DNA of 64,000 nt from positions 5,312,001 through 5,376,000 of the forward strand of contig OZ242029.1 in assembly GCA_965205015.1 (NCBI GenBank). The letters are read 5' to 3'. Origin of the DNA: Candidatus Poribacteria bacterium (lineage in GTDB: Bacteria; Poribacteria; WGA-4E; WGA-3G). Made by a program: the position numbers and the translations under genes. Shown here one piece after another: positions 52,244-57,480 of the stretch. Below the pieces are notes generated by a model. That model saw only the letters and a list, made by a program, of their open reading frames with translations, ran no database searches and was not told where the DNA came from. Position 1 is the stretch's first letter, and each line of letters opens with the position of its first letter.

Positions 52244-53410
52244 TTAGAGATCACCCACGCCAGTCACAACGCCGAATCCGATTCGCCCCCCCATCTTTTT
52301 TACTTCAAACCGTGTGCCAACCTCCATCACCAAGGGTAGATCAAGCGTAAGAGAGACGTGTGCATAAGTCCCTGGTGTAAAAAGCGAAAGTCCTTGCGGA
52401 AGTTTTAGATGCGCTGGCATGTCGATACCCCATAGATAGATATCAGGTCTGTCGTTTTCGATGAGCGGGATATGTGTCCCGCTCTCTTCGTGTGTCAGCA
52501 GATAGATGAGCGCCGTAAATTCGGAATGTGATTTGACGGTCTTTGGGGCGCAAAGTACCTGTCCAATGGACAGCCAGTCGGGTTCGGATTCGACGCACAC
52601 TTCATCTTCCTGTATGCTGAGAACCCGCGTTTTAATCCTGTCCCCTTTACCCACAATGTCCACTGCTTGTCCGACAGCGAGGTGTCCCTGCACAATATCG
52701 CCACGGACGGATACGCTTTCTTTGGTTTCCTCAGTGATTTCATGGATCGGCATGATAAGCGGTAACCGGGCGGTATCCACAGGCGCAGGCATTGCCCGAT
52801 TCATGGCGAAGATAAGGTCAACAATCGGTTGCCACTGCGTGGAGGTGATACTGTGTCCCTTGTAGGTTAATGCCTTGCCCGCGTCTCCAACGGTTATTGG
52901 GGTGGTCTCTTCATTCCAGCCACACGCGTTCAGAAGTTCTGCCATCTCCTGTTGGCAAATGTCTATGAGTTCATCGTCATTCGGGATACCACCTGTGTTC
53001 AGAAAGGAGAGCACTGTCGGGAGGTGCATCTGGCTGGCAAGACGGAGATGTGCTTCGGAATCAGGTGTGATCCCCTCGACCGCATTTACGATCCAAATCG
53101 CGCCTTGGATTGCAGGCGAACCGCTGACCAGCATTTTGACAACGTCGATGTGTGTCTCGCAATCGATGTGAGTATAAAGTTTACCGCTGGTTTCATACGA
53201 TATTGCGCGGTAGGTGATGCCAACCCCTTCTCGGATGGGGTGACTGGTCGGGGTTTGTGCCTCAAAGTCGCCATCTCCGTTGGTATGGATCGCACCGATT
53301 CTCGCGACAACTTTCGCTATCGCCGTTGTCAACGTTGTTTTGCCGTGTCCATCCGCACCGAGGGTACAGATAGGCAACCTGTTATGTGTATTTTCTTTTC
53401 GCTCTGTCAT
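52244..53410 (-). CDS. Divergent EF-Tu-like protein with degenerate GTPase motifs
   Basis: Collinear with all three EF-Tu domains: GHGKTTLT.AI, GIT, Y.HIDC, DELI, GQVL..P, YLL..E.G.H.P, RF...G.GVV. Confidence 0.85.
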   Translation of the reverse strand: MTERKENTHNRLPICTLGADGHGKTTLTTAIAKVVARIGAIHTNGDGDFEAQTPTSHPIREGVGITYRAISYETSGKLYTHIDCETHIDVVKMLVSGSPAIQGAIWIVNAVEGITPDSEAHLRLASQMHLPTVLSFLNTGGIPNDDELIDICQQEMAELLNACGWNEETTPITVGDAGKALTYKGHSITSTQWQPIVDLIFAMNRAMPAPVDTARLPLIMPIHEITEETKESVSVRGDIVQGHLAVGQAVDIVGKGDRIKTRVLSIQEDEVCVESEPDWLSIGQVLCAPKTVKSHSEFTALIYLLTHEESGTHIPLIENDRPDIYLWGIDMPAHLKLPQGLSLFTPGTYAHVSLTLDLPLVMEVGTRFEVKKMGGRIGFGVVTGVGDL

Positions 53411-53566
53411 CTCTTTTCTCCTGATCGATGTAATTTTTTTTCAATTTCCATTTCATTGTAGCATAAAATCAGGAATTGGGCAATAAAGGAAAAACTTGCC
53501 AAAGGGGCTAATGCGTGTTAGACTATTAACACTTACGGCTTAGTCCAAAACTCCGAAAATAAAAAA

Positions 53567-54123: not shown

Positions 54124-55494
54124 ATGCAGATAAACGATTCATTACGTCCCGCCGACCTAAAGCCGCAGATTGAGAGACTTTTTGAATGCTCAGGTCAAAA
54201 GATTTTAGCGATAGAAGACACATGGTCCCCCGAAAAAGGAACCCCCGTTTTTACCGTTGCTGGCACCTACACAACGCGCGGCTGGACCGAGTGGACACAA
54301 GGGTTTCAATTCGGCGCCGCGATCCTTCAATTTGATGCCACCGGCGATGCGCAGTTCCTTGAGATCGGTAGACGGAACACGATTGAGAAAATGGCACCCC
54401 ATGTGACACACATCGGTGTCCACGATCACGGTTTCAATAATGTCTCTACCTATGGTAACCTCCGGCGTTTGATGCGTGAGGATGTGATTCCGTGGAACGA
54501 TAGCGAGATGGATTTCTATGAACTCGCACTGAAAGCCTCCGCTGCCGTGCAGGCGAGTCGCTGGACGCGCATTAGTGATGGGACAGGATATATCGCTTCC
54601 TTCAACGGACCGCATTCACTCTTCTCAGACACTATCCGGTCTTTGCGAGCTTTAGGACTTGGGCATACCCTCGGCGCCGTGCTAATGGGTGAGGGGGATG
54701 TCGCTATCAGTCTGCTGGAACGTTTGCTCCAACATTCGCAGGCCACTGCAAACTATAACGTTTATTACGGCGAAGGACGTGATGCATTCGACCTGCGTGG
54801 ACGGGTGGTGCATGAATCTATCTTTAACACGAACGATGGAAACTATCGTTGTCCAAGCACGCAGCAGGGGTATTCACCCTTTACAACGTGGACCCGCGGG
54901 CTGGCATGGATTGTTACGGGGTACGCCGAGCAACTTGAGTTTTTTGACACGCTACCTGCAGATATGCTTGAACCTTACGGTGGATATGAACTGGCGACAG
55001 CACACATGCGCAAAGCCGCGGAAGCCACTGCGGATTTCTATATTGAGAACACAGCACAAGATGGGATTCCGTATTGGGATACCGGTGCGCCCGGTTTAGC
55101 AGAACTCGGCGATTATTTAACAGTCCCCGCGGATCCCTATAACGATCTTGAACCTGTGGATAGTTCCGCCGCGGCGATTGCGGCGCAAGGCTTGATTCGA
55201 TTCGGCAACTATCTCAGAAAGCATGGCGAGTCGGAGGCTGGAGATTCCTATTATCAAGCAGGTTTAACGGTCGCGAAGACGCTCTTCGCTGAACCGTATC
55301 TCTCTGAATCCGATACGCATCAAGGGTTGTTGTTGCATTCGGTATATCACCGTCCGAATGGATGGGATTATGTGCCGGAGGGCAGGAAGATTCCGTGTGG
55401 CGAGGCTTCCATGTGGGGGGATTACCATGCCCGCGAACTCGCAGTCCTCTTATGGCGGGAGATAAACGAAAAGCCGTATTTGACGTTTTTCTAA
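54124..55494 (+). CDS. Glycoside hydrolase family 88-like protein
   Basis: WTQGF, HDHGF, TWTRGLAW, PYWD, DSSAAAI, WGDY. Confidence 0.85.
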   Translation: MQINDSLRPADLKPQIERLFECSGQKILAIEDTWSPEKGTPVFTVAGTYTTRGWTEWTQGFQFGAAILQFDATGDAQFLEIGRRNTIEKMAPHVTHIGVHDHGFNNVSTYGNLRRLMREDVIPWNDSEMDFYELALKASAAVQASRWTRISDGTGYIASFNGPHSLFSDTIRSLRALGLGHTLGAVLMGEGDVAISLLERLLQHSQATANYNVYYGEGRDAFDLRGRVVHESIFNTNDGNYRCPSTQQGYSPFTTWTRGLAWIVTGYAEQLEFFDTLPADMLEPYGGYELATAHMRKAAEATADFYIENTAQDGIPYWDTGAPGLAELGDYLTVPADPYNDLEPVDSSAAAIAAQGLIRFGNYLRKHGESEAGDSYYQAGLTVAKTLFAEPYLSESDTHQGLLLHSVYHRPNGWDYVPEGRKIPCGEASMWGDYHARELAVLLWREINEKPYLTFF

Positions 55495-55547: not shown

Positions 55548-56999
55548 ATGAGCAAAATACGAGACACACAGCACTCCAAGGTCGAAATCGCTGTCAAGAA
55601 TTTTGGTCCCATTGCCGAAGCCAACATTGATCTGCGTCCGCTGACGGTGTTTGTTGGTACCAGCAACACAGGGAAAACGTATTTCTCAACACTAGTCTAT
55701 GTACTACATAGTATCTCCGGGGGGTTCGCTCCGTTTCCTTTGCAAAACCTTACTAATGCTTCCTTAGTTTCTGTAGACCGTGAACTTAAGAGAAAGTACT
55801 TTTTTTCAAGGCATCCTGAAGAGAAAGAGGCAATAAGGATACTACTTGAGGCAACACGAAAGGCCCTTGAAAAATTGATAGCAAGTCGTTCTCCATTCAA
55901 GTTTTCGGATCTCCCCGAAGTGTTGCGCAACCACCTACAATCAAATCTCACAAGCCCTGAGGTTATTCGCACTGAGCTCAATCGCTGTTTTGATTTTAAA
56001 TCGCTTTCAGACCTGATACGGTTTACCGATAGTTTCCATTGTAAGATGAAGGTTTCTCTAAAGGTAAGTGCGAAAAATCAAGAATGGTGGAACTTCAATA
56101 TGATAACCACCAAATCAGACCTCGTCGTGGACGGCGCAGTCAATGCTGATTTGGTACTTACGCCTGAAGATGAGGTTTTATGGAATTCAACGCCTAATGA
56201 TGAATTCACTGACTATGCCCCAAATGGTCGAAGAAGGTATTATTTGCCAGCCTCTCGCAGCGGCATCATTCAAAGTCATCGGATCATAGCAAGCTCCCTT
56301 ATGGAGCGAACTATTAGGTCAGGCGGTCCGGAAATTCCGACGCTTTCATCGGTGGTTGTAGATTTCATGAAGCAACTTCCTCTTTACGAGGAAAGTGAAT
56401 CTAATGACACAATACTTGCTATTGCCGACGCGATAGAATCAGAGGTGTTAGCGGGAAAAGTAATCGCAAGACCTTTACTGAGCGGCTATCCGGAGTTTTT
56501 CTATCAACCGCACGGAGCAAAAGCGGAAATTCGCTTAAATCAAACTTCCTCAATGGTATCTGAACTTGCTCCGCTTGTTCTATTTCTGCGAAGTCTTGTT
56601 CATCCTGGGGATACGCTTATCATCGAGGAACCGGAAGCACATCTGCATCCCGGTGCCCAAGCAGACATGGCAGTTATCCTCGCTCGCTTGGTCCGCGCGG
56701 GCGTAAGAGTAATCATAACGACCCATAGCGATTGGCTACTTCAGGAAATCGAAAATCTGGTTCTCGAGGGACTATTAGAGGAAGATACCGATGAACTTGC
56801 AAGTTGGTTGTTACCGAAAGAGGTCGGCGTATGGCATTTCCAAAAGGACGAAGCAGTAAAGGAAATTCCCTTTAAACCCAGAGAAGGCCTCTCTCCAGAG
56901 GATTATGAGGATGTTGCCGAAGGACTTTACAACCGCTCTGTGAATCTCCAACAGAAATTAGAGAAACAGGCAGGTAACAGCGAACGTGAACCTGCATAA
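55548..56999 (+). CDS. ABC/AAA_15-type ATPase (defence/TA-associated type)
   Basis: NFGPI, GTSNTGKT, PASR, IEEPEAHLHP, TTHSD. Confidence 0.85.
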   Translation: MSKIRDTQHSKVEIAVKNFGPIAEANIDLRPLTVFVGTSNTGKTYFSTLVYVLHSISGGFAPFPLQNLTNASLVSVDRELKRKYFFSRHPEEKEAIRILLEATRKALEKLIASRSPFKFSDLPEVLRNHLQSNLTSPEVIRTELNRCFDFKSLSDLIRFTDSFHCKMKVSLKVSAKNQEWWNFNMITTKSDLVVDGAVNADLVLTPEDEVLWNSTPNDEFTDYAPNGRRRYYLPASRSGIIQSHRIIASSLMERTIRSGGPEIPTLSSVVVDFMKQLPLYEESESNDTILAIADAIESEVLAGKVIARPLLSGYPEFFYQPHGAKAEIRLNQTSSMVSELAPLVLFLRSLVHPGDTLIIEEPEAHLHPGAQADMAVILARLVRAGVRVIITTHSDWLLQEIENLVLEGLLEEDTDELASWLLPKEVGVWHFQKDEAVKEIPFKPREGLSPEDYEDVAEGLYNRSVNLQQKLEKQAGNSEREPA

Positions 57000-57480
57000 C
57001 GTTCTTGAGGAGGTTCGACAGTGGGTAGGCAATAGAATAGCAACATCCTATATCAAAGAAGGATGTCGTGTCTCTATGGCTAATATACCATCAGCGCGCG
57101 TTGTGTTGGACGTAGATCGTGCGTTTCCAACGGACAGAGCAAGGACAAACCAATGCGATTTTGTTCTCTTCTACATTGACACTACCCAAAACAGACTCGT
57201 CGGGGTTCCAATGGAGCTTAAAAAAGGCAGCGTTAATGCATCAGAAGTGATTGCCCAGTTGCAAGAAGGCGCGCGCATCGTTGATAACCACACGCCACAT
57301 GATGTTGAGATGGATCTTGTTTTTCTTCTGGTCCACGGTGCTGGTATGCATAGAAGTCAGCGAAACCGACTTAGAACTGCCAGAATCAGGTTCCGAGGCA
57401 CAGAATTTCCGATTAATACGGCGCGATGTGGTCACCAAGGAAACTTAGCACAAGCTTTAGCAAAGTCAACGAAACGTTGA
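56986..57480 (+). CDS. Hypothetical protein overlapping the ATPase, possible PD-(D/E)xK nuclease
   Basis: CDF...MELKKG...QL motif; start overlaps the ATPase 3' end. Confidence 0.6.
   Translation: MNLHNVLEEVRQWVGNRIATSYIKEGCRVSMANIPSARVVLDVDRAFPTDRARTNQCDFVLFYIDTTQNRLVGVPMELKKGSVNASEVIAQLQEGARIVDNHTPHDVEMDLVFLLVHGAGMHRSQRNRLRTARIRFRGTEFPINTARCGHQGNLAQALAKSTKR

Follow-up and report, generated by a model that had tools for sequence, protein, structure and literature searches.

A phylum-wide EF-Tu-like paralog of Candidatus Poribacteria with degenerate GTPase motifs and a shortened domain 2

Introduction

The elongation factor EF-Tu is among life's most conserved and best-studied proteins, and to our knowledge descendants of EF-Tu that have diverged and left translation are essentially absent from surveys of bacteria. 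In eukaryotes, Ski7/Hbs1-like adaptors are paralogs within the EF1 family of translational GTPases (trGTPases) that keep the fold and serve as adaptors instead of as carriers of tRNA or factors. Here we analyze a gene for a 388-residue EF-Tu-like paralog in a 64,000-nt stretch of DNA from Candidatus Poribacteria (the window), with genome-level counts made in related Poribacteria genomes. By sequence, the protein has the features of a pseudoGTPase, in that the GTPase fold is kept and residues for nucleotide sensing, specificity or hydrolysis are lost, and we lean modestly toward the view that it is a neofunctionalised EF-Tu-fold pseudo-GTPase that serves constitutively as a module for binding or as an adaptor.

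A 2015 survey of trGTPases gives, in the portion of its text used here, actEF-Tu as the sole clearly distinct bacterial EF-Tu-like subfamily, and describes actEF-Tu (Streptomyces EF-Tu3) as a condition-specific, antibiotic-resistant translation factor, i.e., a working elongation factor (PMC4342817). Among pseudoGTPases, AAGAB contains a class i domain, according to the portion used of a second source (PMC12490416). The original prediction, made from the DNA alone, had proposed that the Poribacteria family is undescribed, and this holds within the literature searched: we find no description of the family at the full-text level (a listing in a supplementary table is possible), the portion used of the trGTPase survey names only actEF-Tu (PMC4342817), and the portion covered of a 2026 sponge holobiont proteome preprint, whose supplements lie outside that scope, names EF-Tu only generically.

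Results

The paralog shares the EF-Tu layout and scores far below EF-Tu

The paralog gene (P0001; 388 codons plus stop) occupies 52244..53410 on the minus strand, as do all of its features given below, and is supported by the open reading frame (ORF), its translation, Pfam and TIGR00485. It starts with ATG and has zero internal stops, so that ORF calling and translation agree with the uninterrupted 388-residue ORF first predicted. Residues 4-385 align to positions 5-394/396 of EF-Tu profiles, which bears out the predicted collinearity with EF-Tu domains 1-3; the top PDB sequence matches are all EF-Tu, and identity to the organism's own tuf product is ~30%. On the TIGR00485 EF-Tu equivalog model, the paralog scores 213.1 bits against a cutoff of 522.4, and on the NCBIfam EF-Tu models 213-219 bits against cutoffs of 449-522; the canonical tuf products of ten Poribacteria genomes reach 715-732 bits on TIGR00485. 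The paralog also misses the cutoffs of the other EF1-family models, SelB (33.5/242 bits), EF-1alpha (33.9/540) and CysN (22.1/336), and its scores on the EF-G and remaining trGTPase profiles are far below that for EF-Tu. It falls in none of the characterised subfamilies.

The profile alignment and a structural model described below together reveal the three-domain architecture of EF-Tu, with domain 2 undetected by Pfam. Domain 1, a degenerate G domain (residues 1-205; 52796..53410), contains a GTP_EFTU match (3.7e-19, residues 13-182), and its predicted local distance difference test (pLDDT) values are mostly >90. Domain 2 is a trimmed beta-barrel (residues 206-290; 52541..52795) that has no GTP_EFTU_D2 match in Pfam and pLDDT values of 92-95. 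Domain 3 (residues 291-388; 52247..52540) matches GTP_EFTU_D3 (1.8e-12, residues 291-385).

The nucleotide-binding motifs are degenerate beyond the P-loop

The canonical tuf of Poribacteria genomes served as the reference for a comparison of G motifs. The P-loop GADGHGKT (residues 18-25; 53336..53359) stands in place of GHVDHGKT and leaves the GxxxxGKT (Walker A) pattern intact; its third residue is free to vary in clade A, the window's clade (T, D, P, S, L, H or A), and GK-T is kept in the listed patterns of clades A and B. In G3, DCPGH has become DCETH (residues 83-87; 53150..53164), with the DxxG glycine replaced by threonine and the histidine kept, the latter being N or Y in some orthologs. 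This glycine is missing from 28 of 30 tabulated family rows; the remaining two, both clade-D relatives, are ambiguous. At G4, NKxD (NKAD in tuf) is replaced by NTGG (residues 138-141; 52988..52999), the last two positions of which vary freely in clade A, where variants include NTGG, NTDG, NTRN, NPRN and NTRD, and at G5 the GSAL of tuf is GDAG. These replacements at G1, G3, G4 and G5 are those that the original prediction had listed. The change that it gave for G2, RGITI to VGITY, stands only in part: GIT is present in the paralog, but HMMER and MAFFT alignments alike shift it by two residues toward the C-terminus relative to the canonical one, so that the two are not matched by column and the canonical switch I Thr column is Gly.

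Domain 2 has lost part of the aminoacyl-end pocket

A gap in domain 2 near the aminoacyl-end pocket had been proposed and is real, although it comes to a net 14 residues in the MAFFT alignment and not the 17 first given. The tuf segment without a counterpart is MFKKSLNEGQAGDN, and its loss at the junction Q266/E267 (52610..52615) cuts into the region of the aminoacyl/A76 pocket. Fifteen alignment columns, labelled after the EF-Tu:Phe-tRNA literature as contacts to the aminoacyl end, A76, the 5' phosphate or the T stem, were compared; 3/15 are kept in the paralog, 9 are substituted and 3 are deleted. The deletion site (residue 266/267, ~52610-52615) is an indel hot spot in the family alignment, and clade B and some relatives carry acidic, low-complexity, variable inserts of ~10-25 residues there (L045, L060, L062, L116 and L117 are listed); L117 has a distinct 10-residue insert immediately N-terminal of the hot spot.

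An AlphaFold2 model of the paralog, computed from a 64-row alignment, has a pLDDT of 91.6 and a predicted template modelling (pTM) score of 0.88, and domain 2 is modelled confidently with 7 strands, vs 10 in a tuf control. Foldseek ranks open, GDP-type EF-Tu structures at the top for this model, with template modelling (TM) scores of 0.83-0.88. We considered a locked open, GDP-like shape as a trait specific to the paralog and set it aside: a model of canonical Poribacteria tuf built on those same 64 sequences has an open form as well (TM 0.94-0.97 to GDP forms and 0.56-0.58 to GTP-analogue forms), which makes the modelled open state uninformative on the paralog. A predicted complex of the paralog with EF-Ts from a related genome gives scores of 0.01 and 0.02, relative to a mark of 0.32, from a shallow EF-Ts alignment (16 rows, at least 90% identical), and is uninformative on binding. 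The isoelectric points, 5.2 for the paralog and ~4.6 for tuf, are both acidic and hence uninformative.

The paralog thus lacks the score, the complete G1-G5 set and most of the aminoacyl-tRNA residues of an EF-Tu. The proposal that it is not a working elongation factor draws support from the 213 bits vs a cutoff of 522, the loss of the G3 Gly, G4 and G5, the 14-residue deletion and the 3/15 contacts.

The family is widespread in Poribacteria and evolves under purifying selection

A family profile built from 34 members was run on 175 Poribacteria genomes, with the tuf level calibrated at ~294 bits. We find matches at the paralog level (E 3e-107 or better) in 157/175 genomes; another 13 have matches at the tuf level only (E 2.4e-76 to 3.6e-93) and 5 have no match to the family profile, and these 18 are metagenome-assembled genomes in which absence is unproven. 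Most non-carriers form a single block of the genome list, within which the only carriers are G017 and G018. Each of the ten complete Poribacteria genomes checked contains one tuf, one paralog and one SelB-sized match. The SelB-type factor (642-673 residues; GTAGHVDHGK[TS]..., e.g., L121 and L122) is present in 10/10 complete genomes, and for this reason the phylum probably decodes selenocysteine.

A protein-homologue search returned 333 matches, the best 120 of which are 80-96% identical, and each organism name given for these is Candidatus Poribacteria. A genome scan with the paralog finds 32 loci, 31 titled Poribacteria and one "uncultured bacterium"; a scan with P0122, a 51% identical relative, finds 44, comprising 43 in Poribacteria and one canonical tuf from Chitinophagaceae. 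In a search of 1.84 billion library proteins, only 8 clusters among the best 150 representatives favour the family profile over tuf; several are fragments, and the sole full-length named cluster has named members from Poribacteria. In these homologue and genome scans and among these best 150 library representatives, we find no family members outside Poribacteria. A search of the ESM Atlas returned only EF-Tu-type clusters. As a lead only, the nearest of these by features has 77 members, mostly from Nucleocytoviricota, bears the name "GTP binding translation elongation factor family protein" and likewise lacks Pfam D2.

Selection was estimated as the pairwise Nei-Gojobori (NG86) dN/dS ratio (omega). 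In clade A, 579 pairs with dS of 0.05-1.5 among 53 sequences have a median omega of 0.095; the median for clade B, from 168 pairs among 19 sequences, is 0.086, and tuf lies at 0.03-0.08 in five of the same genomes; for domains 1, 2 and 3 of the paralog, omega is 0.109, 0.091 and 0.096, respectively. The reading frame is intact in every complete family gene examined, with stops within matches only at gene ends. Family-specific columns, in which conservation over 35 rows (clade D included) reaches at least 90% and the residue differs from tuf, are spread across all three domains: C15, L17, I38, G39, P54, S75, G76, C152, G164, Y183, W193, Q241, D251, G256, R258, W279, K290, H313, N319, D320, W327, G365, E369, K372 and M373. 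The eroded G motifs and the shortened domain 2 are what a decaying or neutrally evolving tuf duplicate would exhibit, but this explanation can practically be dismissed given the intact frames, omega values of ~0.09-0.10, a conserved promoter (see below) and carriage by 157/175 genomes of the phylum rather than by one strain.

Motif loss follows a graded series

To judge by its motifs, the family is a stepwise loss series, and this is a new finding. The least degenerate grade, C, is represented by G017, G018 and the metagenomic P0123, with G1 GH[FL][GA]HGKT, G3 DCV[ND]H, G4 NKID and G5 GSA, and the [IV][ED]DVF pocket residues are kept. The relatives L105/L106 (from G071 and G069) keep the P-loop and have D[SG]ESH at G3 and NKAD or NEVD at G4. 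Grade B, the clade of P0122, also keeps the P-loop, with G3 DG[LM]SH and G4 NKAE in 18/19. Grade A has GK-T in every listed pattern, G3 DCET followed by H, N or Y, and a freely varying G4, NT[GDR][GND]. In grade D (G065-G068, 4 genomes), GxxxxGKT is deleted, G3 is DFPTS or similar and G4 is IDQP.

The phylogenetic check that had been proposed was carried out with IQ-TREE on 57 rows (LG+C20, SelB as outgroup; supports are ultrafast bootstrap / Shimodaira-Hasegawa-like approximate likelihood ratio test), and places the paralog family in its own clade, apart from every tuf at 100/100. Clade C is basal in the family tree, and all other members form a clade with support of 100/100 and a stem of 1.09. 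Clade D is monophyletic (100/100; stem 1.03) and sister to L105+L106 at 100/99; how groups B, D and A branch relative to one another has supports of only 14-31. The loss of the P-loop is secondary and a single event, since clade D is nested within P-loop-bearing clades, and gamma-phosphate sensing reads as the oldest loss, since the G3 Gly is gone from nearly all tabulated rows. The two most distant of the clade D sequences compared have an omega of 0.176 at dS 1.19.

The free tree does not join the paralog family to Poribacteria tuf. When the two are constrained together, the log-likelihood is 22.4 above that of a quick free search and the tree is not rejected (approximately unbiased test, p-AU 0.751), which makes it plausible, as far as these alignments go, that the paralog arose by tuf duplication within the lineage. 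By inspection, the tuf tree for these genomes is compatible with the deep paralog order (G017; the G066 group; B genomes; A genomes), with one shallow mismatch, G005.

These grades bear on an alternative put forward at the outset, namely an enzyme with altered nucleotide use. Here, the P-loop would bind and hydrolyse nucleotide with a relaxed or altered base specificity (e.g., ATP or any nucleoside triphosphate), in a cycle that drives a new task. Such an atypical NTPase would account for the GK-T found in all listed clade A and B patterns despite the varying neighbour position, and in clades C and X as well, for a Thr/Ser column kept in the switch I region of clades A and B, for the switch II His of most members, and for NKAE in 18/19 clade B sequences and NKID with GSA in clade C. 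We nonetheless consider it unlikely: the Gly that contacts the gamma-phosphate is gone in 28/30 tabulated rows, at least 7/53 clade A sequences have N or Y in place of the catalytic His and two more A-group rows have Q or S, G4 is unconstrained in clade A, and purifying selection persists in clade D without a P-loop. That last result instead lends support to another early suggestion, a nucleotide-independent scaffold.

The gene is solitary, with a conserved promoter and clade-specific neighbours

A sigma-70-type promoter, originally predicted as TTGCCC-N17-TACAAT, is found at 53455..53483, with a -35 TTGCCC, a 17-nt spacer and an extended -10 TGcTACAAT, giving 9/12 consensus matches with the TG present. 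A score of 9/12 is frequent by chance (3 observed vs 2.1 expected in shuffles), and we judge the promoter to be real not because of that score but because TTGC (-35) and TGnTAyAAT (extended -10) are invariant in 10/10 orthologous upstream regions, aligned from loci whose paralog proteins are 64-90% identical, in which the flanks have diverged. On this alignment, the invariant core is a phylogenetic footprint. The predicted Shine-Dalgarno sequence AGGAG is present 7 nt 5' of the ATG (53418..53422), and a GGAG-type motif precedes the ATG in 10/10 of the aligned regions, at a shifted position in three.

The paralog gene is solitary, with hisA convergent and a cytidylyltransferase-like gene divergent from it. 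Across 43 syntenic clade A loci, hisA is found in 41, two ABC-transporter genes in 41 each, the cytidylyltransferase in 31 and a 456-residue ORF in 31. In the window, this last ORF lies at 54124-55494 (plus strand); it stands beside the paralog locus in 31/43 clade A genomes at 84-96% identity, and has no Pfam or PADLOC match. The contexts of clades B, C and D are entirely different, with no gene family in common. M20 peptidases by the B and C genes were considered as a common neighbour and set aside as non-orthologous (29% identity over 123 residues).

Further along the window, 55548-57480 (plus strand) encodes a 483-residue AAA_15/AAA_21 ATPase and an overlapping 164-residue ORF. The best PADLOC matches of the ATPase are PD-T4-4_A (2.8e-36), PDC-M47A (1e-31), NsnB and AriA, and the 164-residue ORF has a weak match to PDC-M47B (0.002). 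Only 19-20/43 otherwise syntenic clade A loci carry the pair, which is often 44-55% identical where neighbours are 85-95%; from its sequence and occurrence, we take it for a likely defence cassette of two genes that varies between loci.

A role as a decoy or guard against EF-Tu-targeting toxins, phage proteins or antibiotics had also been suggested. EF-Tu is a known toxin target or cofactor, with Tse6 and CdiA complexes among the PDB matches of the paralog, and the defence-like cassette lies ~2 kb away. The suggestion finds no support, however, from the protein itself, which matches 0 defence families in PADLOC-DB 2.0 at E <= 0.01, is only ~30% identical to the tuf product that it would have to imitate, and has lost the pockets recognised by antibiotics and toxins. 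The gene is single-copy, vertically inherited and slow-evolving, whereas defence genes are typically patchy with fast turnover, and the cassette, separated from it by two genes, is missing from more than half of the syntenic loci. We regard a decoy as very improbable.

The same neighbourhoods bear on a ribosome-associated, tRNA-independent factor, which would act at the factor-binding site or on an A-site protein without GTP hydrolysis, in hibernation or translational control. The entire three-domain shape is conserved with equal constraint across domains, and one PDB match, 8rdw, contains EF-Tu(GDP) together with Balon, a hibernation factor that canonical EF-Tu(GDP) accompanies on hibernating ribosomes; the EF-Tu fold is thus known in such a role, which is a lead and not evidence. 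Set against this, none of the four contexts links the paralog to a gene for hibernation or translation, and the surface is only ~30% identical to that of tuf. We consider this specific role quite unlikely.

Discussion

The reading toward which we lean, a neofunctionalised pseudo-GTPase used for binding, can be drawn out as follows. The paralog would neither deliver aminoacyl-tRNA nor cycle as a GTP switch, and would bind a protein or RNA partner constitutively, as an adaptor. Conserved positions specific to the family, e.g., Y183, W193, W279, W327, the GxGDRIKT strand and FE.KKM, would serve this binding, and the P-loop retained in most lineages may keep a bound phosphate or nucleotide whose role is that of a structural cofactor rather than of a timer. 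The core job of the family would be independent of nucleotide, since one lineage has deleted the P-loop yet conserves the protein.

Several observations weigh against this reading. A binding module is what is left by elimination, and the tRNA-contact labels follow the EF-Tu:Phe-tRNA literature rather than a structure. GK-T is present in every inspected family sequence outside clade D, which argues for a continuing role of nucleotide or phosphate there and leaves room for an atypical NTPase. The branch that leads to clade D is very long (1.03) and omega is higher in this clade; clade D may therefore have changed its function and may not reflect that of clade A. The paralog may bind the ribosome without tRNA. 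Clades A, B, C and D sit in four unrelated gene contexts, which give no clue to function.

A fuller account, which we hold tentatively and find slightly easier to doubt than to accept, would make these proteins the first family of pseudoenzymes in bacteria to descend from a trGTPase. An early duplication of tuf in Poribacteria would have been followed by vertical inheritance and by successive losses of gamma-phosphate sensing, guanine recognition and, in one lineage, the P-loop, under purifying selection throughout. The protein would perform a nucleotide-independent job on a Trp-rich conserved surface, as an adaptor on the ribosome or for a protein that grips EF-Tu.

A phylum-wide descendant without the GTP switch or tRNA pocket that is nonetheless strongly selected suggests that bacteria can recruit the EF-Tu fold to a new task. 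The progression from C (nearly canonical) through B (partly degenerate) and A (no base recognition) to D (no P-loop) would constitute a rare natural series from GTPase to pseudoenzyme. The proteins are small and soluble-looking, which makes biochemistry feasible even though the sponge-associated Poribacteria are uncultured.

Comparison with known systems

Canonical EF-Tu and the paralog share the three-domain layout and GxxxxGKT, and the paralog model superimposes on EF-Tu at TM 0.83-0.88; in contrast, the paralog is without the G3 Gly, NKxD and SA, has 12/15 tRNA-contact positions changed or deleted, and coexists with a normal tuf in each complete genome. Factors of the Hbs1/Ski7 type offer a eukaryotic parallel for such recruitment, but they belong to another domain of life, have an independent origin and carry extra N-terminal interaction regions that are absent in the paralog.

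A 396-residue EF-Tu-like "GTP-binding protein" from Myxococcus (the P0128 cluster) resembles the paralog in being lineage-restricted with a degenerate G3 (DPPSH) and G4 (NKWR), and differs in its full-length domain 2, its higher score on the tuf profile and its position outside the Poribacteria paralog clade. All 7 organism-named members of this cluster are Myxococcus; the eighth has a JGI product name only. The Myxococcus protein is no member of the Poribacteria family and suggests more than one origin of degenerate EF-Tu paralogs.

Like the Poribacteria paralog, actEF-Tu is, in the portion of the survey used, a lineage-restricted, divergent extra tuf that escaped gene conversion; the Poribacteria paralog is set apart from actEF-Tu as described there by its loss of switch and tRNA-site residues. 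With pseudoGTPases such as AAGAB, as characterised in the portion used of that source, the paralog shares the loss of G-motif residues, in a fold that those proteins reuse for protein-protein binding (PMC12490416). By that classification, clade D, which has no P-loop, would fall in class i (no binding, no hydrolysis), whereas the class of the window's clade is not assignable from sequence because the P-loop is retained. The pseudoGTPase examples given there are eukaryotic small-GTPase-like domains, and the Poribacteria paralog is a full three-domain bacterial trGTPase.

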